Source: Acidimicrobiia bacterium
GTDB lineage: Bacteria > Actinomycetota > Acidimicrobiia > Spongiisociales > UBA5794
Direction of reading: 5' to 3'
NCBI GenBank assembly: GCA_027036355.1
Contig: JALVQZ010000250.1
Location: 3,596 to 67,595, forward strand
DNA length: 64,000 nt
Part shown: one piece after another, positions 1 through 34,167 of the stretch
How positions within the stretch are numbered: position 1 is the first letter of the stretch
Layout: each line of letters begins with the position of its first letter
Notes under the pieces: model-generated
Told to the model about the DNA's origin: nothing
What the model saw: the letters and a program-made list of their open reading frames with translations, nothing else
Database searches by the model: none
Translations under genes and position numbers: made by a program

Positions 1-389
1 GCGTCATCGGGCTTGTTCTCGGTGTTCTCGGTGTGCTTCTTCTCGGACCAGATTCGTGGCAGGAGGTCCTTGCGGGAGCGGTCTTGGCGTGGAGCGTCTC
101 TCTAATCGTGTGGGCGAGGACCTCATACCGTCGTGAGCGCACCGAGTTGGAACAGGCCTTGAGCCGCGCGGCCGAGACCGACGTTCTGCATGCTCGGTTG
201 AACAAGATCTGTGCGGTACTCGGGATTCCACCACTCGATCTGGACTCGGAGCTCCAAGGTGCTATTGACGCCCGGAAGGAGCGCCTGGCCCATTACGCGG
301 GACTCGACGAGTACAGGTCGGGATCTCATGCACAGGGATGCCCTGAGGGGTTCTGGGATGAGGTAGCACTCGGCTGGACTGAGAAGTAG
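1..389 (+). CDS. Hypothetical membrane/coiled-coil protein, 5'-partial (reading frame open to window edge)
   Basis: Frame 3 is open from nt 3 to TAG at 387-389. Translation starts VIGLVLGVLGVLLLGP..., with two hydrophobic segments followed by a charged helical region. Local GC is lower than in the rest of the window. Confidence 0.4.
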   Translation, partial: VIGLVLGVLGVLLLGPDSWQEVLAGAVLAWSVSLIVWARTSYRRERTELEQALSRAAETDVLHARLNKICAVLGIPPLDLDSELQGAIDARKERLAHYAGLDEYRSGSHAQGCPEGFWDEVALGWTEK

Positions 390-597
390 TGCATCGCTAT
401 GGCGGTAGAGCTGATCCTGAGGTGACGGCGATCGTCCACGAGAGCTCCGAGTGCCGTCGACGGGATCGCCATCGGCGAAGTCAAGGTGAGTGCAACCGAC
501 CTGGCTACGGCGATTAGTTCTGGAAGGCCCGTTCTGCCGGGGACCGGCGATGCCTTGACGCGTCAGGTGCACTTCACGGCCCTGCGATAATGCATGC

Positions 598-1662
598 ATG
601 GCGTGGGACAGTCAGCTGTTTCTGGAGCAGCTCGAGGCATTGCTAGTGAGATATGGCGAGGAGGGGACCGCCCTCCAGAAGGAGCTGGGGCAGCTCTACC
701 GCACCGCCGCGAAGGAGATCGTGGACGACGAGCTTAGCGATCTCGCTATGGAGCTATCTGAGAGGAAGGCCCATGCGGCGGCCTTCCGAACTCGCCTTCG
801 AGCCCGATGGGGCTACGCCCTCGATCTGTTCGAGCTGCTCTTGGGCCACTGTTGGGACATCGGACAGGGAACAAACGAGCACTACCGCTCGCTTGCTGTT
901 GAGACGCAGAACCATCGGTTTGAGGCCCTTACTCGCCTCCACGGCAAGGCCACACTTACCGCTTCAGAGATCCTGGTACTTCTTGAGACAGGCCATGCAG
1001 TTGGTGCGATGGCACGGTGGAGAACACTTCACGAAGTCGATGTCGTGTCAGCTTTTCTGTATCAAAACAGTGACGACATCGCGTATCGATACCTGCGGTA
1101 CGAGGACGCTCAAACGCTGAAGATGCGGCGTGCGTACGACAGGTATCACCAGCGACTTGGATACGAGCCTAGCGATCCCGAGATAGACGGGGATCCAGAG
1201 CAGTTAAGAAAGGCACTGGTCGATGAGTTTGGGCACGACTTCCTAGAAAAGAATGGTTGGGCGATCCCCGTGTTCGGGAAGAGACCGACGGACGCGGAGA
1301 TCGAGGAAGCAGCGCGGCTGGACCACTATCGACCCTACTACTACTTGGCTAGCGACGCCGTCCACGCCACTCCCAAGGGACTGATGGCGACGATGCAACA
1401 GATCGGCGATACGCCCATGATCATGGCCGGACCGTCAAACGCGGGGTTGGCCGATCCTGGTCACGGCGCCGCTCTGTCGCTGGCTCGTTGTACGATCACC
1501 TTGATCAACTACTGCGGCATGGATCTGCGAGAGGATCCGGAGCTAGATGAACAGGTGAGCGTTCTGCTCACCACACACATGCTCCTGGAGCTGGCGGATC
1601 GGATTGGGAACGCTTTCGGCGAAGCTCACGAGCAGCTCATGGAAGACGAGAGTCTTGGATAG
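598..1662 (+). CDS. Hypothetical alpha-helical protein (354 aa), lower-GC accessory gene
   Basis: Clean 354-aa ORF with ATG at 598 and protein-like composition (not Arg/Pro-rich). No confident family assignment from sequence alone. Local GC is about 58-60%, against about 70% for the window. Confidence 0.55.
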   Translation: MAWDSQLFLEQLEALLVRYGEEGTALQKELGQLYRTAAKEIVDDELSDLAMELSERKAHAAAFRTRLRARWGYALDLFELLLGHCWDIGQGTNEHYRSLAVETQNHRFEALTRLHGKATLTASEILVLLETGHAVGAMARWRTLHEVDVVSAFLYQNSDDIAYRYLRYEDAQTLKMRRAYDRYHQRLGYEPSDPEIDGDPEQLRKALVDEFGHDFLEKNGWAIPVFGKRPTDAEIEEAARLDHYRPYYYLASDAVHATPKGLMATMQQIGDTPMIMAGPSNAGLADPGHGAALSLARCTITLINYCGMDLREDPELDEQVSVLLTTHMLLELADRIGNAFGEAHEQLMEDESLG

Positions 1663-1935
1663 CAGGGGACGTGCTGTTCTGGGGAAACCAACGACGTCGC
1701 TATCGAGCGTAAGCCCATGGGATGCCTGGAGTGTCGGAAACCAGGTCGCACACTGATCCTCTTCTCCCGACTCGTCCGGCATCATCGGTGTCTTCAATGG
1801 CGCGGCCTAACCATTCCTGTGCAGACCTGCGGAGAGGGCGTGCTGAGGTGGCGGTTGCCGTCGCGTCCGAGGACGCTGGCGTGATGGTCAGGCCCTCCCC
1901 TCTGGTTGTTAGGGGGCTTCTGGCAGCCGGCGCTG

Positions 1936-2823
1936 TCAGTCGGCATCTGCGGCTCCCAGGGTGCGTTCGACGGCAGCGTTCAGGCGTTGCAGATAGGAGT
2001 ACGTTTCGAGCAGGAGTAATCCAGCGCCGGAGTCGTTGAAGTAGCGTTCGAGGTAGTCCGTCTCGTTCCCACGAGGATGCACGCCGTAGTTTCGCAACTG
2101 CCGCATGAGGCTGGCCTGGCTGACGAGCTCGTCTGCCTCACCTCGCGGCGGGACGCGCCGTAGGAGTTCTGCGACACGATTCACGACCTTGGCGGTGCGA
2201 TCCTCATCGAGGGCCTTGTCCAGCTGGTTGTCGAGGTGGCGTAGCTTCTCCCCGGCCGCGTACCAGGCTCCCTCACTTGCCGCACCGAGAAGACTCGCGG
2301 TAGCTAGGTGGAGGCCCTGTCGATACGCAGCGAGAGCTTCCAGGATGCAGCGACGGGTTCGACGGTCGAGAGCGAGCGTTTCGAGGTTTGCGGTGAAGAT
2401 GTCCGGCTCGAAGAACCACTCCTGGCCTACGAACCGTGGTGCGAGGCGATACGCGGGGGAGAACTGTCCGAGGCGAGACCGGATCGCGACACTGGTCCCG
2501 ACGGATCCGAACTGATAGGGGATGCGGATCGCGTCGCCGCCGACGATGGGGTTGGAATCCTCGTGTCGAGGGGGCTCGGCGACGGGTACGAGAATCCCCT
2601 GCGACACTAGATCCTGTACGGCCTCGGCGGCGGCCAACGCCAACCGGTATGCCGCGATTATGGGCTGTCCCGGGTGCACCACTCCGCCGATCGCTTCCGC
2701 GGACGTGACCTCCAGACGAGCCCCATCCGCGGGCTCCGGGAGCCCCTCCTGTTCGATGAGACATCGCTGGAGCTCGCGGATTCCGTGTGGCGCGCCATCA
2801 GCCACGATCTCGCGGATCTGCAT
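1936..2823 (-). CDS. HEPN-like domain protein (C-terminal R-x4-H motif RNYGVH), putative toxin/RNase of an Abi/TA-like pair
   Basis: ORF 1936..3144 (minus). The N-terminal 107 codons are Arg-rich and not protein-like. The first ATG is at 2823-2821 (MQIREIV...), and a GTG near 2895 preceded by AGGAG is an alternative start. The C-terminus carries ...LMRQLRNYGVHPRGNETDYLERYF..., which matches the HEPN Rx4-6H signature. Confidence 0.5.
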   Translation of the reverse strand: MQIREIVADGAPHGIRELQRCLIEQEGLPEPADGARLEVTSAEAIGGVVHPGQPIIAAYRLALAAAEAVQDLVSQGILVPVAEPPRHEDSNPIVGGDAIRIPYQFGSVGTSVAIRSRLGQFSPAYRLAPRFVGQEWFFEPDIFTANLETLALDRRTRRCILEALAAYRQGLHLATASLLGAASEGAWYAAGEKLRHLDNQLDKALDEDRTAKVVNRVAELLRRVPPRGEADELVSQASLMRQLRNYGVHPRGNETDYLERYFNDSGAGLLLLETYSYLQRLNAAVERTLGAADAD

Positions 2824-3043
2824 CTTGGCTCGAACAGTTTCGGTGAACGACGGCGACACGTTGCTCCGAATGACCGCCTCGAGTTCCTCCTGTCCTCTCC
2901 GCACGGCAGCTCCTGTACGCGAGGTTCTTAGCGTACGACCTCCCCACGACAGAACGGACCCCACGCACAGCGCCGCTGTGGACCCGTCGCCGAGAGGGCG
3001 GCTTGAGACGCGCAGACGGACGTCGGGATCAAGACGGCGATTG

Positions 3044-3793
3044 TCAGCGTGCCAGTGCCACGCTCTGGCGCACCCGTCGCTCCGCACGGAGTCGACGCTG
3101 CCGCAATGTTTGTGCGTGCACACCGGTCGCGGCGGCCAGCTCATCCACGGAAACGACTCCGGCTCGGGTCAACACCACCAGCCGGGCAGCGTTCTCATGA
3201 ACTCGGCCGTGCGTACGCACCCAATCGATGAGCTCGTCGAGTCGTTGTTCGTCTGCGCCGGGCCTATTGGGGTTGTCAGTCCCCTCGACGTCGGACAGGT
3301 CGTCCCTGAAGACCACCGGCTCCGCCCGGTCCCGAACCGCCGCCCGCAGCACCCGACGACGCGTGTTCTCATACACCCGAAACGAGGGCGGCGTTCCCGC
3401 AGGCTGCGCCGCGCACCATGCCAACACCTCCACCGCAGCAGCCACCACCCGAGCCGCCCGCTCCTCGACGTCCCAGCCCCGAATACGATCGATCAGGCTC
3501 TTCAATCCCGGTAGCACCACCTGCAGCGCAACCCGCTTCGCCAGGACATCGTCGGGTACCCGTTCCAACAGTGCCGCTAGCACCTGGTCCCGTTCCCTCC
3601 ACGACGATACGTCACGACGCTGAGCCGCCGCCACCAACTCCACCCCGTCGGCGAACGCCAGGCGCGGATCCTCGGTAGCCCAGCTTTGCAGCCGCTCTCG
3701 CAGCCATCGCGACCGAGCCAACGCCTGCCACTCCGCTTCCAGCCGGCGGATGAGCTGTGTCTCCCTTGCCCGCCGTGGGCGACGGTTGTCCAA
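3044..3793 (-). CDS. HTH regulator with sigma-70 region-4-like C-terminal domain
   Basis: 249-aa ORF. The C-terminal segment VSVDELAAATGVHAQTLRQRRLRAERRVRQ resembles a sigma region 4 / LuxR-type HTH. It lies immediately upstream of the HEPN-like gene on the same strand. Confidence 0.45.
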   Translation of the reverse strand: MDNRRPRRARETQLIRRLEAEWQALARSRWLRERLQSWATEDPRLAFADGVELVAAAQRRDVSSWRERDQVLAALLERVPDDVLAKRVALQVVLPGLKSLIDRIRGWDVEERAARVVAAAVEVLAWCAAQPAGTPPSFRVYENTRRRVLRAAVRDRAEPVVFRDDLSDVEGTDNPNRPGADEQRLDELIDWVRTHGRVHENAARLVVLTRAGVVSVDELAAATGVHAQTLRQRRLRAERRVRQSVALAR

Positions 3794-4035
3794 CGACGCT
3801 CCTCTCGTACGACGAGAGCGAGCGTGAAGAAGGGGTGCTCCAACGGGATCTCAGTTCTGTCTCGAGGCCAACTCCAAGAGGGCTCCGGGAGACCGGGACG
3901 ACGGGCTTTGGACGCGTTTTGGACGCGAAATGTCGAAAGATGCCGAACGACGCTGAGCAACGACGAAACCGAAAAGCCCTGGTAGTGCAGGCATTCTGCC
4001 GAATCAGCCCGCTTCTCGGCGGTCATCGATACGGA

Positions 4036-4078
4036 CTCATAATCCGTCGGTCGCAGGTTCGAGTCCTGCCGGGCCCAC
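4036..4078 (+). repeat. tRNA-Met 3' half fragment (anticodon loop CTCATAA, T-arm GCAGGTTCGAGTCCTGC, acceptor CGGGCCC+A), att-scar-like direct repeat, copy 1
   Basis: The segment folds as anticodon stem ACGGA/TCCGT with loop CTCATAA (anticodon CAT), variable loop, T-stem GCAGG/CCTGC, T-loop TTCGAGT and acceptor 3' strand. The complementary 5' acceptor strand GGGCCCG and a D-arm are absent upstream, so this is not a complete tRNA. It is identical over 43 nt to 10272-10314. Confidence 0.6.
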
Positions 4079-4274
4079 TGGCGAAAGCCCGCGTGGTTAT
4101 TGGGGTTTCGGCGTTTCTGATCCCGTCGTACTCACGCCTAGGTCGCCGCCAGGCCGCGCTCAGGCCGCGGGAATCTGAGGAACCGCGGCCTGCGACCGGG
4201 TTCATCGGTGGTGCTGGGGGGTCCGTCTGGTGCGGGGAGAGGTATTGGGGACGTCACGAAGGGCGACGTGACGC

Positions 4275-4769
4275 TCAGTTCCTGGCAGTCACTCGTCGGA
4301 GGCGTTGCAGCGCCCGGCGGTATCGCTGCCGGGCTGTGGCGGGGTGGAGTCCGATGGTGTCGGCGATCGTGCGGAAGCCTCGCTCGCCGAGGATCCGGAG
4401 GGTCACGATCGTGCGATCGGGTGGAGCCAGGGAGGCGAGAGCGGCCGTGGCTTCGAAGGCCATGTGACGGTCGACCACCTGGTCGGCGGTGGGATCTGTA
4501 TCGGGAGGGCTGATCGTCGCGGCGAGCTGCTCCGGACACGTCCGTTTCCGGGTTCGATGCCGGTGGCGGGTGACGTTGTGGGCCACGGTCATGAGCCAGG
4601 CGATCGGCATCGGGCAGTCGGCGAGCCGGTCTCGCCGGACCCAGGCCGTCAGGTACACGTCGGCGAGGGCGTCGTCGATCTCGTCTTGGGGTAGCTGTCG
4701 GGCCAGGTAGCGCCGTACCCGTGGGACGGTGTCGTGGTACGTGTCGGTCCACCACCGGTCGTCGCTCAT
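4275..4769 (-). CDS. ECF-family RNA polymerase sigma factor (sigma-70 regions 2 and 4)
   Basis: ORF 4275..4850. The likely start is the internal ATG at 4769 (MSDDRWW...). Region-2-like DEIDDALADVYLTAWVRRDRL and region-4 HTH RTIADTIGLHPATARQRYRRALQRLRR are present. TGA stop at 4275-4277. Confidence 0.75.
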   Translation of the reverse strand: MSDDRWWTDTYHDTVPRVRRYLARQLPQDEIDDALADVYLTAWVRRDRLADCPMPIAWLMTVAHNVTRHRHRTRKRTCPEQLAATISPPDTDPTADQVVDRHMAFEATAALASLAPPDRTIVTLRILGERGFRTIADTIGLHPATARQRYRRALQRLRRVTARN

Positions 4770-4849
4770 CGGTTCCTCCTCGCCGTCTCGGTTCATATGT
4801 GTCCGGCACGGGTGCGTCCGTTTCACCTTGTTCAGTGTCCGGATACCCA

Positions 4850-5030
4850 TGATTCGTCGCGGGAGGGTTTTGGGTTCCCGGGGGGACGAGGAAGATCGCG
4901 CGTCACATTCCGTCCTCTGCGGGCATTACAGGGGTAGGAGACACCGGCGAAGAGGTGTCGCGGAAGGAAGGAATGCAGGATGGGATCGAGTTTGCGGCGT
5001 CTGACATCGATCGGACTGACCGCGGCTGCG
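4850..5030 (+). repeat. About 175-bp duplicated promoter/leader plus signal-peptide-start module, copy 1 (second copy at about 6540-6730)
   Basis: Near-identical stretches: ...gggttcccg...gtcacattccg.ctctgcgggcattacaggggtaggagacaccggcgaagaggtgtcgcggaag...atgggatcgagtttgcggcgtctgacatcga.cggactgaccgcggctgc. Both copies sit upstream of, and run into, the 5' ends of secreted-protein ORFs. Confidence 0.7.
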
Positions 5031-5501
5031 TTGGCGTTCTTCTCGACCGCGCCGGCCTGGGCGGGTTCCCCACCCGATGCTGCGGTGACGCCGGCTCCCT
5101 CGGTCGTCGAGCGCACCGCGCCCGCGGAACCGCTCGGGGGACCGGGGGTGCTCTCGAACGGCGCGGATTGTCAGGGATGCTACGCCTGGGCCTCGATCAA
5201 CGAGTACAGCTCGTGGCCCGGCGTCAAGGTGCGAGCGAAGACACGGAACTACGCAAGCGAGATCATCGATCGTCAGGAAGCCCATCTCGCCTTGGTTGCC
5301 GGCAGCGCTTGCTACCAGGGTGACTACAAGTACACGGGCGGAACGGGCTACGAGTACAACCGGGAGGACGGCTCCCTCGTCGACTCGGGCTGGAAGTACG
5401 GCGGCCACGGCTGGTGGACGAACGCCAATGGCCATGAGTGGCTGGACGACGGCGCGACTTGGACCGTGTCGGGTGGTGCCGATGTCTGCCGGCAGTACTG
5501 A
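4980..5501 (+). CDS. Secreted hypothetical protein (signal peptide MGSSLRRLTSIGLTAAALAFFSTAPAWA)
   Basis: 173-aa ORF. RBS-like aaggaagga lies upstream. The N-terminus has a signal peptide ending AWA, and the mature part is Gly/Tyr/Trp-rich. The stop TGA overlaps the ATG of the next gene (ATGA at 5499-5503). Confidence 0.6.
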   Translation: MGSSLRRLTSIGLTAAALAFFSTAPAWAGSPPDAAVTPAPSVVERTAPAEPLGGPGVLSNGADCQGCYAWASINEYSSWPGVKVRAKTRNYASEIIDRQEAHLALVAGSACYQGDYKYTGGTGYEYNREDGSLVDSGWKYGGHGWWTNANGHEWLDDGATWTVSGGADVCRQY

Positions 5502-6541
5502 TGGGCCCGCAGACGGCAGTCGTGTGGCGGCTGGTCGGCTTGAGCGTGGCGGCGGCCCTCCTCGCCGCGGCATGCCAGGCACCGACCCGTCCCGCGGCCA
5601 CGGCGTCGTCGTCATCGTCGGTCCCGCCGTCGAGGGTCGCCTCTGTCGTCGTGGGGCAGGTGGCTCCTCCGACCGGGTTCCGCGGCGGTGTGCTCACTGG
5701 GATCGGCCTCACGTTCGATCCTGGTGAGGGCGTGGAGGACTGGGCGTGGAAGCTTCCCGCCGTCGCTCCCGAGCACGTGGCTGCCACGGTCCGGTTCACC
5801 ACGGAACTGTTGAACCTGAACTGTGAGAGCTTCCCGGCGCGGCTCGCTTGCCCGGCTCCTGAGGACGCGGTGCTGCTCCATCGTCTGTCCGGGCTCTGGG
5901 ATCTGGACCGTCGGGTGGTTTTCCAGGGTGTGGGAGGAACGTCCGGCCGGGTCGACATCTACCGCGCGGGACCGGGGCGTCAGGAAGACGACGTGGACTT
6001 CGCGCTCCCCGGAGCCGAGAGGGGGGCGCATTGTCTCGTGCTTGCCGCGTTCGAGGATGACGCTACGATCGTCGAAGGACAGTTCCCGGACCACTCGAAC
6101 TCGGGATTGTGGCTGGTCTCCGTCGGTTCCGATGATCCGGATCGGTGTGGAGCCCCCGACTATGAGGGACGTTGGTGGCCGATGGACGAAGACGGGATCG
6201 TCCTCGGCGACTGTGCAGAGCCGTTCCTCACCGATCGACCCCGACAGTACGCGGCCGGCGTGGCAGCGGACACCGACGGGTTGTGGGCGGTGCTGCCGCG
6301 TTGTGGAACGCCGGGGACCTCCTTCGCGGTGTTCGCCGTCGATGGGGTCCTCCAAGGCGCCGGTGACACGTTGGCGCCGTTCCGGATCCCCGCCACCGAT
6401 GCTCCCGGTGTCGTCGTTCCCGTCGACCGGTCCGACGGGTGGCTGCGCGTATTGGTCGCTGCCCGCCGCCCAGGCAACGACCACGGGCCTCGAGTGCTCA
6501 GGAGCCGACCCTGGCTGCCGAACGGTATGGCAGGACCATGA
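5501..6541 (+). CDS. Putative lipoprotein (hypothetical)
   Basis: Internal ATG at 5501 (MGPQTAVVWRLVGLSVAAALLAAACQAP...) gives a lipobox-like LAAAC. It is translationally coupled to the upstream secreted-protein gene. Confidence 0.5.
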   Translation: MGPQTAVVWRLVGLSVAAALLAAACQAPTRPAATASSSSSVPPSRVASVVVGQVAPPTGFRGGVLTGIGLTFDPGEGVEDWAWKLPAVAPEHVAATVRFTTELLNLNCESFPARLACPAPEDAVLLHRLSGLWDLDRRVVFQGVGGTSGRVDIYRAGPGRQEDDVDFALPGAERGAHCLVLAAFEDDATIVEGQFPDHSNSGLWLVSVGSDDPDRCGAPDYEGRWWPMDEDGIVLGDCAEPFLTDRPRQYAAGVAADTDGLWAVLPRCGTPGTSFAVFAVDGVLQGAGDTLAPFRIPATDAPGVVVPVDRSDGWLRVLVAARRPGNDHGPRVLRSRPWLPNGMAGP

Positions 6542-6730
6542 CACGCTGTGTAGTTCGTCGCGGGACGGTTTCGGGTTCCCCGGGCCGGCGAGGAAGATCC
6601 CGTGTCACATTCCGCCGTCTGCGGGCATTACAGGGGTAGGAGACACCGGCGAAGAGGTGTCGCGGAAGCAATGCTCGATGGGATCGAGTTTGCGGCGTCT
6701 GACATCGACGGACTGACCGCGGCTGCATTG
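6540..6730 (+). repeat. Duplicated promoter/leader module, copy 2
   Basis: See copy 1. This copy differs by scattered substitutions and a 1-nt deletion (atcgatcggact -> atcgacggact) that shifts the downstream reading frame. Confidence 0.7.
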
Positions 6731-6868
6731 GTTCTCGCCATCGCTTCGCTGCCAGCTTCCGCCGGGATGGTGCTGGACGAGCTTGGTGTCGAAGATGCGG
6801 GAGGAGCGGCAGTGCAACCGGCGGGGGGGAGTGTCAGGAATACGGTGTATCTGCCTGTTGGCCTGTGA
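6671..6868 (+). CDS. Small hydrophobic-leader protein (65 aa), paralogous remnant of the 4980 gene family
   Basis: ATG at 6671 gives MLDGIEFAASDIDGLTAAALVLAIASLPASAG MVLDELGVEDAGGAAVQPAGGSVRNTVYLPVGL. It shares the 5' nucleotide sequence with gene 4980 but uses a different frame because of the 1-nt indel. Confidence 0.3.
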   Translation: MLDGIEFAASDIDGLTAAALVLAIASLPASAGMVLDELGVEDAGGAAVQPAGGSVRNTVYLPVGL

Positions 6869-6903
6869 TGCTGATCCGTCTGGGTTAGCGGAAAGGACAG
6901 GCA

Positions 6904-7251
6904 GTGACGGAAGTTACGAAGCCGGCGAGGACGCCGGAGGACAAGCAGCTCGCTGAGGAGCTCGTGGAGCGCGCCCGCGATGAGGGTGTGGATCTTGTTG
7001 GCCCCGGCGGGTTGCTGACGGGTCTCACGAAGAGCGTGCTCGAGGCCGGCCTGGAAGCGGAGATGACGGAGCATCTCGGCTACGACAAGCACGATCCGCA
7101 GGGTCGGGAGGCGGACCTGCGGGCACGGGAGCATCGCCTCGACCTGGTGTCCCGGCTCGCCCGGGGGAAGGCGGCAAGCCCGAAGGTGGGCCGCAACGAA
7201 CGGTGCCCCTGCGGCTCCGGTCGCAAGTACGAACACTGCCACGGGCGGTGA
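6904..7251 (+). pseudogene. IS256-family (mutator-type) transposase N-terminal fragment fused to a SEC-C metal-binding motif
   Basis: 115-aa [41 protein letters not shown] matches the conserved N-terminus of IS256-family transposases. The ORF ends with [17 protein letters not shown], a SEC-C motif. The catalytic DDE region is missing. Confidence 0.55.
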
Positions 7252-7273
7252 GGGCCGACGGGCTCTGAGCCGT

Positions 7274-8139
7274 CTACGTGCCGCCCTTCTCCTCAAGGGC
7301 GGTGAGGAGTCGGGCGACGAAGGTGATGCAGGTGGTTTGGATGGTGGCGGCGTCGAGGATGCCGGTGAGGGCGCGGACGGCCATCCGGGTTCCAAGGCTG
7401 CGGGGTGTGCCGAACAGCGAGTCGAGCAGGGTGACGGCGATCCGGGTCACTTCGGCGCAGCGGGGGTCGTCGAGGAGCAGACAGACGTCCCGTCCGATGC
7501 CCTCGGGTGTCGTGGACATGAAGATGCGCAGGACGTCGCCGGCGTCCTTGTCGGTGAGCCGGTCCGGTTGTTCGCGTCGGTCGTCGATCTTGTGAACCTT
7601 GGCCACCAAGAGGGCGGCAGGGCCGGCGACGTCGACGACGATGCGTCGAGGGTCGGCGTCGTCGAGGGCCCGGATCTCGATGGGCGAGTGGTCCACGAGG
7701 GAGCCTTCGAGGCCGGTGGTCTTGCGGGCGGCACGCTTGCCGTGCTCGCCGCCGAGGCGAACCCCTCGGCGTCCTCCCGGCGGTGCGACCGCTGTGGGCA
7801 CGATGAGGTCCACCGGGACGACCAGATCGTCGATGCGACCGGGGACGGTGATGTGGGCCTCCCAGATCCCGGGTTCGGGATGACCGGTGTCCTCGTTCTT
7901 GAGGCGGAGTCCGGCCTGACGCATGGCGGCTTCGAGACCCGGGCGGGCTGCGAGGAGGTGCGGGTCGATGGTGAGGTCGGCGTCGGTGGTGTGCGGCGGA
8001 TAGCCGGGGAGCGGCACCGTACGCAAGTAGACGGCCTGGGCGCCGACGAGGACCAGCGCGTCGAGGTGATCCGTCAGGGCGTCGAGCACGTCGAGAAGGA
8101 CGCTGCGGGCAGCCACGTACTCCGGGTCGAACGTCGTCA
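7274..8139 (-). CDS. Nucleotidyltransferase of the AbiEii/AbiGii (DUF1814) toxin family
   Basis: The in-frame part of ORF 7274..8791 begins at ATG about 8139 (MTTFDPEYVAARSVLLDVLDALTDHLDALVLVGAQAVYLRTVPLPGYPPHTTDADLTID...). The GG/A-x-A-x...R-x-T-x-D-x-D nucleotidyltransferase motif of the AbiEii family is present. The upstream 218 codons of the ORF are Arg/Pro-rich artefact. Confidence 0.6.
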
Positions 8140-9282
8140 TCGGTCGGGCAGCGGATTCGGGGAGCCGGCGAAGTCGTCGGCTCGCCACCGGCCCTCGTTG
8201 GCGCGCATCCACTCGACCAGGGCTTGGCCTTCGGCCGGCATTCTCCCGATGCCGGTGAGACAGTCCGCGGCGAGCTGGGCGGCCGAGACATAGGTCACCT
8301 CGTCGGCGTTCCAGGAGCGGGCGTAGGCGGCGGCGTCGTAGGGGCGGGCGAGGATGACGTTGGCGCCGACATCGGCGGGAAGGAGCCCAAGCGTCTCGGC
8401 GATCTCGGCAGGGTCGTCGGCGTAGATGACGGCGACCGCCGGGGCTGCCACCGGTGCAAGCAGGTTGGCGCCCAGGGATCCGGTGACCGCCCAGCGGGTT
8501 TCGAGTTGAGATGCCGCCAGCGCCGCAGGCAGGTCCCGGACGACGCCGGGGGCGATCCACGTCGAGGTGGCGTTGGCATCCAGCAGGCGGTAGGTGCTCG
8601 TGAGCTGGGTGAGCAGACCTGGCCAGTCCACCTCGGTCACCGGGCCCCGACGTTCCCGGAACGCCAGCCGTTCTTCTTCCAGGACTTTGAGAACGCGAGA
8701 CGTGTAACCGGGGTCGGTGCCGACGGCGGCAGCCAGCACTCGGACACCGTAGGGGGGCCTCACCTCGATCATCGTCTTGAGCAGCGCCCACGCCTTGGGT
8801 CCCCGAAGGCTGGGGGAGGCCGGCTGCTTCGGTGCGGGGTTCTGCTCCGCTCCGTCGACGCGCACGACGAGACCGGGCTCGTCGAGGACCAGGTCGACGT
8901 TGCCCGTCGGGTCCATGAACCCGACCCCGAGTCGTCGAAGGACCCCGCGGGTGCGGCGGCTTCCCCAGGGTGCAACGACGAGCCCTTGCCCGTCAGGGTT
9001 CTCGCTCAGGTAGGACCGGAGCCGCGCCGCGACCTCGGCGGCGATCTTCGGAGTGATCTCCGGCTCGTACCCGACGATCAGCCGAGCCTCGCGCCCGCCT
9101 CCCGGCGCCTCGACGGTGATCGTCGCGTCGGGTCGCCACGCCCCACGTGGGGGACGAGGTTGCATCTCCACGTCGACCGACCACGACGACGGGAGCTGAG
9201 CGCGCAGCACCTCGAACGCCGACTCGATGATTCGCCGAGCCGAGGTGGCCTTGTTGCCTGTGCGGGCCGGAACTGTGCTCAT
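8137..9282 (-). CDS. Winged-HTH protein, putative AbiEi-like antitoxin/regulator partner of the downstream nucleotidyltransferase
   Basis: 381-aa ORF with a central wHTH-like segment GVRVLAAAVGTDPGYTSRVLKVLEEERLAFRERRGPVTEV. Its TGA stop overlaps the ATG of the nucleotidyltransferase gene (minus-strand ...CCGATGACG...). Confidence 0.5.
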   Translation of the reverse strand: MSTVPARTGNKATSARRIIESAFEVLRAQLPSSWSVDVEMQPRPPRGAWRPDATITVEAPGGGREARLIVGYEPEITPKIAAEVAARLRSYLSENPDGQGLVVAPWGSRRTRGVLRRLGVGFMDPTGNVDLVLDEPGLVVRVDGAEQNPAPKQPASPSLRGPKAWALLKTMIEVRPPYGVRVLAAAVGTDPGYTSRVLKVLEEERLAFRERRGPVTEVDWPGLLTQLTSTYRLLDANATSTWIAPGVVRDLPAALAASQLETRWAVTGSLGANLLAPVAAPAVAVIYADDPAEIAETLGLLPADVGANVILARPYDAAAYARSWNADEVTYVSAAQLAADCLTGIGRMPAEGQALVEWMRANEGRWRADDFAGSPNPLPDR

Positions 9283-9392
9283 GATGTCTACATCATACTG
9301 TTGTCCAGAATGAACAACAAGCGATTCTAGGCAACAGCGCCGGAGGCAACTCCTGGTCGATACCGCTGCTCTCGGAACTCCGACGCCTCTGG

Positions 9393-9943
9393 TTGGGCGC
9401 CTCGTGCGAGACTGATGAGGTGTTCACTGTGCATGCGACCAAGAAGCTGCTGAACCGAGTGCGCCGACCGATGATGCCTTCGGTGGTAGATCCGGACACG
9501 GCGCTGGGCAATTGGTACGCTAACGTCCTGTTCTGGCGGCCCCAGGTGGCGCTGCTGGTGAACGAACGGACGCTGTTCCCGGTGTTCATGCCGCTGCGGG
9601 GGCGACGCTCCTCGAGCGGTTCCCCGGTGCTCTCGGAGAGGTGCTTCACGCCCGTGGAGTCCGTGCCGACTTCGTGGCGGCCGAGATGGCGGCGATGTCC
9701 GAGGGCCGATACGCCAAGACGGCGAGCCGCAGCGTCCTCGGGTCGATGAACGAGTTCGTGTATCTCGCCGGAGCCTACCGAGACCGACGGGGAGCGGACG
9801 ATCTGGTCGCTCTGTCACTGTGGTTGGCGCAGACGCCCTGCGGACCGCTGTACGGCAGCCACGTCACCCCCGAGGCTGCGCTGGGCGCCCTCATCGACGA
9901 GTGGGCGGGAGGGCGAAGCCATCGATCAGCACCGACGACGTGA
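9393..9943 (+). pseudogene. Hypothetical gene disrupted by a frameshift at a G-run (ORFs 9393..9749 and 9641..9943 belong together)
   Basis: Frame A gives ...VHATKKLLNRVRRPMMPSVVDPDTALGNWYANVLFWRPQVALLVNERTLFPVFMPLRG. A +1 shift at ctgcggggg gives ...ATLLERFPGALGEVLHARGVRADFVAAEMAAMSEGRYAKTASRSVLGSMNEFVYLAGAYRDRRGADDLVALSLWLAQTP.... Both halves are protein-like. The upstream leader is lower-GC. Confidence 0.4.
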
Positions 9944-10271
9944 CGATGGCTGAAGGGCATGATCTCGGAGGAATGCCGGTCCATGCAGCCAGGGACCATC
10001 TCCGTGGCCCGAAGCCGCGAGCGAAGAGGCGCTCGCTGCGTGTCAGATCGCCGAACTCGGTAGCGAGGCTTGCCTCCGGTCTGCTCGGTCTGCTCGTGGT
10101 GCAGTTGCTGGTCGACCCATGTGAGGAGCCAACCGCCGGCGTCAGGCCGCGGCCAGGCCGCGGGAGGTCGAAAAACGACGGGAAATGACGAAAACGGACG
10201 AGCAGCGAGAACCGTTGCCAGCATTGAGTTTCCGCCGATTCAGTCTGCTCGGTGAAACCCCCCGTTTCGAC

Positions 10272-10314
10272 CTCATAATCCGTCGGTCGCAGGTTCGAGT
10301 CCTGCCGGGCCCAC
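10272..10314 (+). repeat. tRNA-Met 3' half fragment, copy 2 (43/43 nt identical to 4036-4078)
   Basis: Same anticodon-loop, T-arm and acceptor sequence, followed by CCG. No matching 5' acceptor strand or D-arm lies upstream, so it is also a fragment. Confidence 0.6.
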
Positions 10315-10378
10315 CGTCGAGCAGTCCCGTCGGGGTCGTGGCTCTCGCCGGCGTCGAGAGCGTGGTCGGGGTCCGTGA

Positions 10379-12700
<2,322 letters not shown>

Positions 12701-12703
12701 GCG

Positions 12704-14275
12704 TCACGACGGCGAGGGTCGCGCGCGTGCGCGACCCTCGCCGATCGTGCCCGAGGCGCCCTGGAGCTCGACCACGGGAGCGACCGCCGTCGCGGTGAGA
12801 GCGCCGGCGACACCGAGGAGAACCGCCCCGATCCAGCGCCACCCGGTCGGGAAGATCGACGACACGAACAGGTAGTCCTGCGTTGCCGCCCAGGCGGGAA
12901 TCGCCGCCGCGACCCCCGCCGCGCCGGCCAGGAGGAGGCGGCGCGCCCGGTGGCGGCGTATCAGGGGGCGAAGACGTCGACGCCCGGTGTGGAGCCCCCA
13001 CACGATCCGGCCCACCTGTCCGACCGTCATCGCGGTGACGAGGCCGAGAGCCATCCACAGCCATGCCTGCGCCCGGGCGATCACCGAGAAGCCGACCGTC
13101 CCCAGCCCGTTCCACGCCGCCCACCGGTCCACGACCCCGGCGATCAACGGCCAGCTCCTCTGGCTGTTGGCCACCACGACGATCCCGTCGCCGGTTCCGG
13201 GTACGAGATGGAAGTCCGTCATCCACCCGTTGCCCTGCCCGCCGTGCCACACGACGGTGTCGCCGGACGGTGATTCTTCGATGAAGTGCCCGAGGCCGTA
13301 GGCCGGGGAGACCAGTCGGAAGAGGCCTCCGATCTCCGTGGACGGCGAATGGAGGGCCACGATGCTCTCTCGTCCAAGGACCCGGGAGCCGGGGGCGGCG
13401 GGTCCGGTCGTGCCGGCGGCCACGAAACGGGCGAGGTCGTCGACGGTCGTGAACAAGCCACCCGATGCGGCGGCGGGATAGACGTACGGGGCGATGGGGT
13501 TGCCATCGAGGTCGTAGCCCGTCGGAAGAGATCCGGTGAATGCGTCGTTCCACACGAAGCTCGAGCGCTCCATGCCCAGTGGACCGAGGACGTGGTGTTG
13601 CATGTACGTCGCGAACGGCTCTCCGGAGGATTCCTCGACGACGACCTCGAGGAGATCGAAGCCGACGTTCGAGTACGAGAAGGACCCGCCGGGTTCCCCA
13701 ACGACGCGCACCTGGCTCGACAGGTTCTCCCGAAGAGAGGGCATGTCTGCCCCCGGCGGGTAGTGGATCCCGATGGCCCCCAGGGGGAGTCCCGCGGTGT
13801 GCGAGAGCAGCTCCCGGATCGTGATGTCGTCGATCGGTCCGGCTCCCGGCGGGGGCCGCCATCCACCCAGATGGTCGGACACCCGGTCCTCGAGCCCGAG
13901 GCGTCCCTCCTCGACCAGGCGGAGGACCCCCCATGCCGTCACGGACTTGGAGATGGACTCGGCTCGGACCACATCGCCGGTCGTGATCGGCCGGCCGGTG
14001 GCGATGTCGGCCATCCCGTAGGCGTCCGACCAGACGACGTCACCTCCGTCGACGAGCGCCACGACGATCCCCGGCACGTCGTATGTCTCCATCATGCGGG
14101 GGATCTCCGCGTCGAGGGTCGCAGTGAACGCGTCGAGATCGCCGTCGGCGTCGGCCGCTGCTGGTCCGGATGCGACCATCAACGCAACGACGATCAACCA
14201 GCACGGCCCAGGTACCGAGCGGAACACCGATGCCCGGCGGCCCGCCCGGTTTCTGACGGAAGTGCGATCGAGCAT
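12704..14275 (-). CDS. Beta-lactamase-family serine hydrolase (SxxK motif SISKS) with C-terminal transmembrane region
   Basis: Protein-like part of ORF 12704..14869. Likely start ATG 14275 (MLDRTSV...LIVVALMVASGPAAA signal). ESISKSVTAWGVL matches the class C / esterase family. C-terminal hydrophobic helices are present. The upstream 5' part of the ORF is artefact. Confidence 0.7.
   Translation of the reverse strand: MLDRTSVRNRAGRRASVFRSVPGPCWLIVVALMVASGPAAADADGDLDAFTATLDAEIPRMMETYDVPGIVVALVDGGDVVWSDAYGMADIATGRPITTGDVVRAESISKSVTAWGVLRLVEEGRLGLEDRVSDHLGGWRPPPGAGPIDDITIRELLSHTAGLPLGAIGIHYPPGADMPSLRENLSSQVRVVGEPGGSFSYSNVGFDLLEVVVEESSGEPFATYMQHHVLGPLGMERSSFVWNDAFTGSLPTGYDLDGNPIAPYVYPAAASGGLFTTVDDLARFVAAGTTGPAAPGSRVLGRESIVALHSPSTEIGGLFRLVSPAYGLGHFIEESPSGDTVVWHGGQGNGWMTDFHLVPGTGDGIVVVANSQRSWPLIAGVVDRWAAWNGLGTVGFSVIARAQAWLWMALGLVTAMTVGQVGRIVWGLHTGRRRLRPLIRRHRARRLLLAGAAGVAAAIPAWAATQDYLFVSSIFPTGWRWIGAVLLGVAGALTATAVAPVVELQGASGTIGEGRARARPSPS
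12711..12742. terminator. Perfect 14-bp-stem hairpin (GGCGAGGGTCGCGC gcgt GCGCGACCCTCGCC) between convergent katG and the serine-hydrolase gene
   Basis: The inverted repeat is read directly from the sequence, 11 nt after the katG stop. It overlaps the last codons (GRARARPSPS) of the minus-strand ORF ending at 12704. Confidence 0.45.
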
Positions 14276-15669: not shown

Positions 15670-16062
15670 TCATCTCACGTGGAGGGCCTCGACGACGAGC
15701 CGGGTGATGGTCCTGGCCGTCTCGTCGGTCCATGTCGGAACGACCAGATAGCGAACCCGCTTCCCCGTCCCTTCGAGGCGGCCGTCCGAGAGCAGATGGC
15801 CGTGTTCGAAGCCGACCCGTACGTGGTCGGCATCGGGGAAGATCGCGCAGACGTAGCCGGCGGCGGGGTCGTGGAATCCGAGCCCGTGCCAGCCGAGGTA
15901 GACCCGCTCGGTCGCATCGGGCATCGCGTCGAGGATCGCTTCTCGACATCGCAACGTCAGGTCGACCACGTGGGGGTCGTGGTCGACGAGGAGGCGGTCG
16001 AGCTTCGGGGGTGGGTCGGGGACCGGGCTCCTCACGTTCCCCCTCCGGTGGCGGCGATCCAT
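15670..16062 (-). CDS. DUF1801 (YdhG-like) domain protein
   Basis: C-terminal LGWHGLGFHDPAAGYVCAIFPDADHVRVGFEHG is typical of DUF1801. The start is uncertain (ATG about 16062, or a later GTG). Confidence 0.5.
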   Translation of the reverse strand: MDRRHRRGNVRSPVPDPPPKLDRLLVDHDPHVVDLTLRCREAILDAMPDATERVYLGWHGLGFHDPAAGYVCAIFPDADHVRVGFEHGHLLSDGRLEGTGKRVRYLVVPTWTDETARTITRLVVEALHVR

Positions 16063-33237: not shown

Positions 33238-34167
33238 ATGCCGATGAGCCAGGATCATCGAAGCGAGGTCCCGGTCGCGTGGTCTCGGGGTCCCGGATGC
33301 CAGGAGCTGGCCACGATCCTCGGAGGGGCGTCGGCCGTCCAGGTCGACGGCGATCCCGTCGGGAGCTGCATCCGCACCCGCTCGTTGCTGATGGTCACCC
33401 GCAAGCTGTCGTCCTTCGACCTGTGCTCGGTCGCCGTCCCGACCGATTTCGACCCCGACGCCACCACCGAGGTCGTCGCCGCCGTCGGCAGCGGTCCGCA
33501 TTCGCCGCTCGCCGCGGCGATCGCCCTCCGACTCGGGTACCGCCTCGACGTTCCCGCCCGCGGGGTCTACGCGCACGGCGCGCCCGGGCCGGTACCGTCG
33601 GCCCGGAGGGTGCTCCCGGAGATCGTCGATCGGTTCCCCGCGCTGCAGGTCGAGGCCATCCACGCCCCCAGCCCGGCCGACATGGTCGACGCGCTCCCGG
33701 CCGGGGCGCTGCTGATCGTCGGCGCACCGGGCGGTTCGTGGTTCCAACGCCAGTTCTTCGGCCCCGGAGCCAGGATCCGGCACCGAGCCCCTTCGGGCAC
33801 GATCGTCGTCAAGGCGGCACCGCGGCGTGTCTACCAGGCGATGGAGCCGCCCCAGGCGTACGGGCCCCAGATGAGGGCCGGTGACGCCGTCGCCCTGGGT
33901 CTGGGGGACATCGTCGTGGCCGCAACCGGCACGCTCGTCGGCATCGTCTCGTCGGCGGATCTCCACCGGGCAGATCCCGACAGGGAACTCGCCGACCTCG
34001 TCGCGCACGCTCCGCACCTGGAACCCGACGAGCCGATGGACCACGCCATCGAGCTGTTCGCCGAGTCGAACACGGCGATCCTGCCCGTCGTCGATCGACG
34101 TGGCCGTCTCGTCGGGGTGCTCTACCGAGACGGCACCGGAGCGTCCGCCCTGCCCTGGGCGGGATGA
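33238..34167 (+). CDS. Universal-stress-protein-like plus CBS-domain protein
   Basis: The central region resembles a USP alpha/beta fold (LLIVGAPGGSWFQRQFFGPGARIRHRAPSGTIVV). The C-terminus is CBS-like (IVSSADL...ILPVVDRRGRLVGVL). Confidence 0.5.
   Translation: MPMSQDHRSEVPVAWSRGPGCQELATILGGASAVQVDGDPVGSCIRTRSLLMVTRKLSSFDLCSVAVPTDFDPDATTEVVAAVGSGPHSPLAAAIALRLGYRLDVPARGVYAHGAPGPVPSARRVLPEIVDRFPALQVEAIHAPSPADMVDALPAGALLIVGAPGGSWFQRQFFGPGARIRHRAPSGTIVVKAAPRRVYQAMEPPQAYGPQMRAGDAVALGLGDIVVAATGTLVGIVSSADLHRADPDRELADLVAHAPHLEPDEPMDHAIELFAESNTAILPVVDRRGRLVGVLYRDGTGASALPWAG

Follow-up and report, generated by a model that had tools for sequence, protein, structure and literature searches.

An ICE and a decayed att-flanked remnant probably lie in tandem at a tRNA-Met attachment site upstream of katG in an Acidimicrobiia contig

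Results

Layout of the locus

The window, i.e., the whole 64-kb stretch of Acidimicrobiia DNA that was analysed, contains two identical copies of a 43-bp sequence ahead of the peroxidase gene katG. To the left of copy 1 lies the end of a conjugative element, hereafter ICE-A, and between the end of copy 1 and the end of copy 2 lies a stretch of 6.2 kb, hereafter segment B (4079-10314). The features of the region are listed below by coordinates and strand (+, - or none).

1-3030, no strand: variable cargo region of ICE-A, with a DUF5677 gene (598-1662, +) and orphan ORFs (Pfam, composition)
3044-3793, -: 249-aa ICE-family gene, the last ICE gene before the att arm; weak DUF6362 match (sigma-70 region-4 / HTH-like)
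3794-4035, +: P arm of ICE-A, retained along with the ICE in L204 and L214; its last part is a degenerate tRNA 5' half (4005-4035)
3910-3927, +: tandem repeat GGACGCG-TTTT-GGACGCG, 126 nt upstream of core copy 1; the same repeat lies at the same distance in L186
4036-4078, +: core copy 1, attR core of ICE-A and attL core of segment B
4079-4259, +: left arm (P'-type) of segment B, not followed by an integrase gene; contains CAGGCCGCG-CT-CAGGCCGCG (4150-4169) and a further, inverted copy (4184-4192)
4260-10136, no strand: cargo of segment B, without an integrase, relaxase or T4SS gene
4275-4850, -: ECF sigma factor
4865-5034 and 6567-6731: duplicated leader of about 170 nt (repeat analysis)
4980-5501, +: secreted protein
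5501-6541, +: lipoprotein-like protein
6904-7251, +: SEC-C / IS256-like fragment, the IS256 match being sub-threshold
7274-8140, - and 8137-9282, -: orphan ORFs
9393-9943, +: DUF6933 / PDC-S63 gene split over two frames
10137-10271, +: right arm (P-type) of segment B, with CAGGCCGCG-GC-CAGGCCGCG at 10143-10162, 127 nt upstream of core copy 2
10272-10314, +: core copy 2, attR core of segment B, without a tRNA 5' half
10315-12700, +: chromosomal flank, a 175-nt spacer and then katG (10490-12700; Pfam peroxidase domain)

The repeated core is the 3' part of a tRNA-Met gene

In sequence, the 43-mer equals the part of genuine elongator tRNA-Met genes that covers the anticodon loop, variable loop, T-arm and 3' acceptor strand. 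Such genes are present on almost all of the metagenome contigs compared, which number more than 120. In other words, the direct repeats that bracket the element are the portion of a tRNA gene that starts with the anticodon loop and runs through to the 3' end. The repeat is exact over 43 bp, as an earlier note on this DNA had claimed, and extends at 90% identity to 58 nt (4027-4084 and 10263-10320). When a 22-nt sub-pattern of it was searched with up to three mismatches, only the two copies were found in the 64 kb (0 expected).

Such a repeat could in principle stem from segmental duplication or gene conversion with no site-specific integration involved, as short, weak similarity continues upstream of both copies and segment B holds another duplication, that of the leader. 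However, the block of identity has the anticodon loop and the tRNA 3' end as its exact limits, as is typical of tRNA-targeting integrases; its outer flanks are not duplicated, and the arm repeats described below keep a conserved spacing and are seen again next to integrase genes in other loci. We therefore give this origin almost no credence.

Arm-type repeats flank both cores

Tandem heptamers of the form GGVCGCG-N4-GGVCGCG (11-nt period) occur three times in the 64 kb (at 3910, 4152 and 10145) against 0.21 expected, and each of these sites flanks a core copy. At copy 1, copy 2 and the scar in L186 alike, the tandem repeats lie 126-127 nt upstream of the core. The motif was found in 13 of the 217 loci compared, and 11 of the 13 are these att, integrase or RNase P regions. 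A moderate local similarity exists between the right arm of segment B and the arm of ICE-A, with 1-37 of 1000 mononucleotide shuffles reaching the observed score.

In related loci the same repeats lie within the 3' end of tyrosine integrase genes adjoining tRNA-Met. The 23-nt CAGGCCGCG repeat of the left arm of segment B recurs exactly inside the 3' end of the integrase gene in L213. L109 has an intact tRNA-Met (73.1 bits) with a tyrosine integrase gene 16 nt behind it; the 3' end of that gene contains GGGCGCGTTTT three times, the analogous repeats there beginning 64 nt past the tRNA core. All three analogous loci, L109, L186 and L213, have a tyrosine integrase, and in L186 and L109 the repeats show the geometry found in the window. 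Judged by their sequence, the repeated sites flanking the cores of the window are of arm type and are putative integrase sites.

A conjugative element probably ends at copy 1

The 5.6 kb of upstream DNA examined (L001) places a conjugation module (VirB4-like ATPase, TcpC and TcpE) directly upstream of the window, and ICE-A reaches at least 5.6 kb leftward beyond it. The VirB4 gene is interrupted in its reading frame at about residue 309, and this upstream DNA holds no other tRNA. A coupling protein was seen only in sister elements, and neither a relaxase nor an integrase was found in the examined DNA of ICE-A or of its closest sisters.

The 249-aa protein at the right end of the ICE is 85-86% identical in L204 and L214, and 66-72% identical in L208-L210 and L217, where its gene adjoins TcpC and VirB4. 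Furthermore, the arm and the pseudo-tRNA described below are co-inherited with the ICE: L204 and L214, both from other metagenomes, retain them at 83-84%. The cargo at the same place in L204 is different and includes SMODS and QueC-like genes. The conjugation module directly upstream and the arm that travels with the ICE bear out the view of the earlier note that the DNA left of copy 1 is a separate element, and its lower GC was likewise recovered (58-64% in 1-2500; composition). More distant relatives of the ICE have serine recombinases and other integration sites. The ICE-A family is widespread in Acidimicrobiia metagenome genomes (MAGs), and no published description of it was found in the literature searched.

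Copy 1 is part of a pseudo-tRNA

The stretch 4005-4078 is called a tRNA-Met by ARAGORN and scores 31.2 bits with Rfam RF00005, just over the 29-bit threshold, because copy 1 is preceded by a degenerate 5' half. In this half (4005-4035), 20 of 32 aligned positions match the canonical tRNA-Met 5' half (manual count) and the anticodon-stem strand ACGGA is retained. The claim that both copies lack their 5' part therefore holds for copy 2, a bare 3' half in which neither program called a tRNA, and fails for copy 1.

Taken at face value, these calls would make 4005-4078 the host's own, unusual tRNA-Met, at which a single island of 6.2 kb integrated with the ICE merely adjacent; a hairpin after copy 1, as is found after genuine tRNA-Met genes, also fits this. 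The earlier note had itself named a covariance-model score for a complete tRNA as evidence against its reading, and copy 1 formally attains one, but its score is below the 73.1 bits of genuine genes that share its 3' half. Its fold has five acceptor pairs instead of seven and a poor D-arm, so that copy 1 lacks the typical covariance score, the 7-bp acceptor stem and the D-arm of a functional tRNA-Met, and in the sister locus L204 an uncompensated change breaks the T-stem. Moreover, the 5' half and the sequence upstream of it were inherited with the ICE in three different flanks, and the arm upstream of copy 1 has the repeat architecture of the copy 2 arm and the L186 scar. A single island beside a host tRNA gene is therefore highly improbable. 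Copy 1 is a pseudo-tRNA carried in the arm of ICE-A and not a functional gene, and on these comparisons its 5' half and the arm upstream are assigned to the type IV secretion ICE.

Segment B keeps both att sites and lacks mobility genes

Segment B retains both attL and attR, i.e., two identical cores, each arm with the same CAGGCCGCG repeats. Searches with Pfam, NCBIfam, PADLOC and tblastn found no integrase, relaxase, coupling protein or T4SS gene in 4079-10314. In agreement with the earlier note, there was no Pfam match to an integrase among the scanned ORFs in 1-14.9 kb. Two integrases of the relevant family, used as tblastn queries against the whole window, had no significant match, and no tyrosine integrase gene was found next to an att site there. 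As segment B has both att arms without integrase or transfer genes, it is best described as a decayed att-flanked remnant that is CIME-like.

Among the cargo, the ECF sigma factor, the duplicated leader and the frameshifted gene were all as first described. The supposed AbiE-like pair, i.e., the two orphan ORFs, had no match in Pfam, PADLOC or NCBIfam, which leaves that label unsupported; the IS256 remnant has a weak basis, its match reaching 18.5 bits against a cut-off of 21.

Sister loci and the katG flank

The gene katG begins 175 nt past copy 2, the distance originally given for it. In L214 a sister ICE is also found with katG, at 80.5% nucleotide identity and in the same orientation relative to the ICE end, and there is no second core, no 6.2-kb segment and no left arm of segment B, so that the two loci form a presence/absence polymorphism. 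Homology to the ICE stops about 13 nt past the tRNA 3' end, where other DNA follows, and katG lies 3.7 kb away. L214 is not a clean empty site, because this different DNA separates the ICE end from katG; the comparison with relatives proposed in the earlier note thus yielded a locus free of segment B and the second core, but not one with the tRNA core directly next to katG. One gene of the 3.7-kb stretch of L214 lies at 15740-16009 in the window.

In contrast to L214, which ends at copy 1, the equally close sister L204 shares the left arm of segment B up to about 4259 (180 nt) before it diverges, and no second core was found in the approximately 2 kb of L204 beyond copy 1. As L204 has these 180 nt, the junction between ICE-A and segment B is either older than the divergence of the two ICEs or carried along with the ICE, so that a plain succession of two independent insertions in this genome cannot be taken as given.

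These sister loci bear on a composite arrangement, in which there would be one ICE with segment B as cargo and copy 2 as its working right end, while copy 1 and its arms would be an internal relic of accretion, carried along when the composite is transferred. L204, from another metagenome and with another flank, has the same copy 1 and 180-nt arm, as would be expected if the junction travels with the ICE, and the transfer of a CIME-ICE tandem as a unit has been documented in other bacteria (PMC5704250). However, L214 ends at copy 1 with neither the arm of segment B nor a second core, and the second core is missing from the 2 kb of L204 as well. We consider a composite ICE possible, though rather unlikely.

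Discussion

The locus is probably made up of an ICE and a decayed att-flanked remnant, in tandem at one tRNA-Met attachment site. The earlier note had proposed tandem, partly decayed elements at a tRNA-Met, and this proposal is strengthened by the ICE upstream, the comparisons with L204 and L214, and the arm geometry at both copies. Copies 1 and 2 would be the right-hand junctions (attR type) of two elements with a common site, the 3' part of an elongator tRNA-Met, which were apparently inserted one after the other, the order of insertion being inferred. The right end of ICE-A would consist of the 249-aa gene, the arm with its GGACGCG repeats, the decayed tRNA 5' half and copy 1, while segment B would have kept both arms with the CAGGCCGCG repeats together with copy 2, and lost its integrase and any transfer genes. 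Recombination would have been carried out by a tyrosine integrase with crossover in the anticodon loop. Since L109 has an intact tRNA-Met followed by a tyrosine integrase, an intact tRNA-Met and the ICE integrase are by analogy expected at the far left end of the ICE, upstream of the window. Mobilisation of segment B, alone or with the ICE, is putative; the 180-nt arm common to L204 is only suggestive of it.

Accretion in tandem at tRNA genes is a textbook phenomenon and an ordinary, well-known route by which genomic islands pile up. CIMEs and accretion have been defined (PMC5704250), and both are described with ICESt1 and ICESt3 of Streptococcus thermophilus (Pavlovic et al. 2004; Bellanger et al. 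2011; via PMC5704250). Like those CIMEs, segment B has on its two sides attL and attR sites akin to those of the ICE next to it. Unlike them, the target here is the 3' end of a tRNA-Met in an actinobacterium, and cis-mobilisation of segment B is putative from its sequence; ICESt1 and ICESt3 target fda in Streptococcus.

Tyrosine integrases that target tRNA genes reportedly cross over in the anticodon loop. The locus resembles islands of such integrases in its identity block of about 43 bp, which spans the tRNA from anticodon loop to 3' end, in the direct repeats that bracket the island, and in the integrase gene abutting the tRNA in the related locus L109, but differs in the decayed tRNA 5' half added to the ICE arm and in the absence of an integrase from the window. 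Among the integrative elements of actinomycetes, pSAM2 resides in tRNA-Pro and SLP1 in tRNA-Tyr, the identity segment of SLP1 covering most of the tRNA. The high-GC Gram-positive host, the tRNA 3' part as target and the long identity segments are shared with these elements. However, pSAM2 and SLP1 transfer double-stranded DNA by an FtsK-like Tra protein, whereas the present ICE family has a VirB4 / T4CP / TcpC type IV secretion module. Another reported actinobacterial case of site-specific accretion, of an island and a mobile element, is alike in kind, but its elements, att site and cargo differ.

It is improbable that the decayed yet conserved tRNA 5' half has been kept in the ICE arm for a purpose and is not mere debris. 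If it were purposeful, the integrase might read tRNA-shaped or cruciform DNA, or the P arm, core and P' arm might together form a complete hybrid attP-like site. With such a hybrid site, the ICE would pick up neighbouring remnants and carry them as exchangeable cargo, and a purposeful attachment region would mean that this ICE family builds islands by repeated accretion at tRNA-Met.

For annotation, a confusing entry is cleared up: what ARAGORN, and Rfam by a narrow margin, took for a tRNA-Met is a pseudo-gene at an att site, and the 6.2 kb upstream of katG would be a dead mobile remnant rather than core genome. More broadly, the analysis reveals a family of ICEs in uncultured Acidimicrobiia that are probably marine; variable, defence-rich cargo flanks the transfer module of these ICEs on either side.

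Two tRNA-Met fragments upstream of katG

A repeat search of positions 1-14000 found a 58-nt direct repeat (4027-4084 and 10263-10320, 90% identity) with an exact core of 43 bp, in agreement with the earlier note, which had described two identical tRNA-Met 3' copies 6.2 kb apart with katG 175 bp after the second.

4036-4078: core 1 (copy 1), 43-bp tRNA-Met 3' part
10272-10314: core 2 (copy 2), identical to core 1
10490: katG start, 175 nt past copy 2

From the anticodon loop CTCATAA (anticodon CAT) the core runs through the 3' strand of the anticodon stem, the variable loop and the T-arm to the 3' acceptor strand. A 22-nt part of it, searched with up to three mismatches, occurs at just two sites in the 64 kb, which are both copies, with 0 expected by chance. 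Exact matches to the 43-mer in metagenome contigs (> 120 listed) were mostly genuine tRNA-Met genes from unrelated AT-rich marine genomes, and they also supplied three contigs used below for comparison (L109, L133 and L186). As the canonical 5' half GGGCCYGTAGCTCAGTTGGTYAGAGCARCGGA precedes nearly all of the matches listed, the 43-mer represents the 3' part of a genuine elongator tRNA-Met that is widely conserved. A scan of viral contigs gave no match to it.

The earlier note had also stated that both copies lack the 5' acceptor strand and D-arm. This is true of copy 2, which has no tRNA 5' part and was not called as a tRNA by ARAGORN or Rfam, but not of copy 1, which has a degenerate 5' half. 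ARAGORN called 4005-4078 as tRNA-Met, and the Rfam tRNA model gave 4007-4075 a score of 31.2 bits (threshold 29), with an acceptor stem of 5 bp and a poor D-arm in the alignment. By manual count, the 31 nt ahead of core 1 agree with the canonical 5' half in 20 of 32 aligned positions; the anticodon-stem strand ACGGA is retained. Given this degenerate 5' half, and a score of 31.2 bits versus 73.1 bits for genuine tRNA-Met genes with an identical 3' half (L109, L133), copy 1 is a pseudo-tRNA. Its counterpart in L204, a sister element described below, has two changes in the tRNA 3' half, one of which disrupts the T-stem with no compensating change and so speaks against tRNA function. The remaining weak Rfam matches (PYLIS_2, HIV SL4, beta-tmRNA and others) were all far below their thresholds and were discarded.

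A probable integrative and conjugative element left of copy 1

An exact-protein look-up recovered two metagenome contigs from the same population, L001 (window -5607 to 4086) and L003 (window 4032 to 13003). Upstream of the window, L001 carries genes for a VirB4-like AAA_10 ATPase, TcpC and a TcpE-like protein, a set that we read as a type IV secretion (T4SS) conjugation module. With this module upstream, the segment left of copy 1 would be the right part of an integrative and conjugative element (ICE). In metagenome genomes named Acidimicrobiia, the ATPase has a large family of homologues, whose loci have a common order: small ORF, TcpC, two small ORFs, VirB4, TrbL-like protein, SLT/M23 hydrolase and coupling protein. 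Literature searches turned up no account of this ICE family in Acidimicrobiia. Distant relatives have serine recombinases and other targets (L206; L217 with tRNA-Leu), and we therefore infer the integrase type for the tRNA-Met sublineage only.

Both sides of the T4SS module in these loci carry variable cargo, largely of defence type. The lower GC noticed earlier left of copy 1 is real (58-64% in 1-2500), and this stretch is a cargo hot spot of the ICE; at the matching position L204 has SMODS and other genes instead. Defence-type cargo in the family (L204, L205, L206, L210, L211, L217) includes SMODS, SNF2 with DUF1156, an Eco57I-like enzyme, PLD-SNF2, SduA_C, BrxL with PglZ, and AbiEii.

Several further details of these contigs were recorded. 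L001 and L003, two ENA contigs from one sample, overlap by 55 nt at 4032-4086, exactly on copy 1; the break could be repeat-induced, or it could point to alternative junctions within the population. In the window's ICE, the VirB4-like gene (L001 451-2936, window ~ -5157 to -2672) lies in two reading frames, split near residue 309 relative to the intact 832-aa sister protein, reflecting either a decaying ICE or an assembly error in L001. A partial second copy of the last ICE gene before the attachment (att) arm, which encodes 249 aa (3044-3793, minus strand), lies beside the T4SS (window ~ -577 to -391 via L001; L204 7527-7749), so that the cargo region is bracketed by one full and one partial copy. 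In L208-L210 and L217 the full 249-aa gene directly adjoins the T4SS.

Sister elements and the end of the ICE

Two sister ICEs, L204 (88% nucleotide identity over the T4SS module) and L214 (84%, as in L215, over the aligned 249-aa gene and arm), have the 249-aa gene, the intergenic arm and the pseudo-tRNA, including its degenerate 5' half, all as in the window. The arm and pseudo-tRNA thus belong to the ICE itself. No homologue of the 249-aa gene was found upstream of copy 2.

In L214, homology to the window ends ~13 nt past the tRNA 3' end and unrelated genes follow, which places the ICE boundary near the tRNA 3' end, as expected of an attR junction. A katG gene (80.5% nucleotide identity, same orientation) lies 3.7 kb from the ICE end, and hence a related host also has the ICE near katG. 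L214 has a single core and nothing of 4079-10271, showing that the 6.2-kb segment and copy 2 are not constant parts of the locus. As an empty site it is not perfectly clean, one gene of its 3.7 kb corresponding to window 15740-16009. This region and window 33387-33873 are 71-73% matches to L214 genes placed elsewhere relative to katG, one in the stretch from the ICE end to katG and the other just past katG, and the katG neighbourhood has thus been rearranged between the two hosts. A katG scan of species-representative genomes for an empty site gave a best match of 74% identity, and none of the six katG matches from these genomes that were scanned for tRNAs had a tRNA-Met nearby.

The first 180 nt after copy 1, the left arm of the segment between the copies (segment B, 4079-10314), are also present in L204, which then diverges; nothing in the window corresponds to the flank that follows its arm. 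The ICE and this type of left arm were therefore joined before the two ICEs split, or their junction travels with the ICE. The arm in L204 leaves room for a composite element, in which the ICE and segment B would be one unit with its working right end at copy 2; L214 is without the arm of segment B, which argues that the ICE can also end at copy 1.

Repeats in the arms

The 64 kb contain three occurrences of the pattern GGVCGCG-N4-GGVCGCG (0.21 expected), all on the plus strand.

3910, plus strand: arm repeat GGACGCG, 126 nt before core 1
4152, plus strand: arm repeat GGCCGCG, 74 nt after core 1
10145, plus strand: arm repeat GGCCGCG, 127 nt before core 2

The repeats after core 1 and before core 2 are part of a 29-nt repeat, D4, with 86% identity in the repeat search. 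On an unrelated metagenome contig (L186), a scar has CAGGACGCG-CT-CAGGACGCG 126 nt ahead of an identical core. In L109, the stop codon of a tyrosine integrase gene lies 16 nt past an intact tRNA-Met, and an ArdC-primase gene comes next; GGGCGCGTTTT is present three times within the 3' end of the integrase gene, beginning 64 nt past the tRNA core. A tyrosine integrase gene of the IMG/VR contig L213, with HDLRH and RYGHL motifs, has the exact 23-nt CAGGCCGCGCTCAGGCCGCGGGA in its 3' end. Of the 217 loci fetched, 13 have the pattern, 11 of them being these att, integrase or RNase P regions, and a scan of viral contigs gave no match to the GGACGCG-type arm pattern. Apart from the repeats the arms are weakly similar (1-37 of 1000 mononucleotide shuffles reach the observed local alignment scores), and the conserved distance from repeat to core is a stronger signal than overall arm similarity. 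We consider the GGVCGCG repeats to be putative arm-type integrase-binding sites.

Contents of segment B

The left arm (4079-4259) and the right arm (10137-10271) of segment B have repeats in common, and an identical core stands on each side. The cargo is as follows.

ECF sigma factor
Secreted protein and lipoprotein-like protein
Second copy of a ~170-nt leader
SEC-C / IS256-like fragment
Two orphan genes
DUF6933 / PDC-S63 gene, split over two frames

The sigma factor, duplicated leader and frameshifted gene that the earlier note had placed between the copies were all found, and its claim that no integrase lies there held in profile searches and in tblastn with the L109 and L213 integrases, which found no integrase, relaxase or transfer gene. 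Its label of an AbiE-like pair, applied to the two orphan genes, had no support in three profile libraries and was dropped. Directly past the left arm, where L109 and L213 carry the integrase gene, the window sequence is unrelated from ~4260 onward. An integrase C-terminal remnant in 4079-4259 was not established, as only seven repeat-encoded residues match and tblastn was blank. The ~170-nt duplication (4865-5034 and 6567-6731, 88-96% identity) covers an upstream region and a signal-peptide start (MGSSLRRLTS...), and the second copy heads merely a 65-aa ORF.

Other loci with possible related attachment sites

In L212 (1-462; IMG/VR UViG_3300044703_000110), a bacterial RNase P RNA gene (200.7 bits) is followed after ~90 nt by the same CAGGCCGCG tandem repeats, which suggests that relatives of this integrase system may use rnpB as attachment site. 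L186 (1-5303) is a 5-kb element that encodes a tyrosine integrase, a primase-like Zn-ribbon protein and a DUF3631 protein; its ends are mismatched, with tRNA-Val (CAC) beside the integrase on the left and the tRNA-Met scar with GGACGCG arm repeats on the right. In L133 (180-3032), a shorter scar from the T-loop to the 3' end (one mismatch in 22 nt) lies 2.8 kb downstream of an intact tRNA-Met. This points to another element class using this tRNA-Met in another GC-rich genome. L129, L197 and L203 have a common sequence just before tRNA-Met and three different ones right after it, and L109, L129 and L197 have homologous upstream genes in common; the tRNA-Met of these four loci looks like a recurrent integration hot spot.

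Interpretation

The ICE on the left, the arm repeats and the lack of segment B in L214 support the original proposal of tandem, decayed elements targeted to tRNA-Met. This proposal predicts an intact tRNA-Met and the ICE integrase at the far left end of the ICE. The arrangement is that of an ICE with a remnant resembling a cis-mobilizable element (CIME) at a tRNA gene, and is a further example of a well-known kind.
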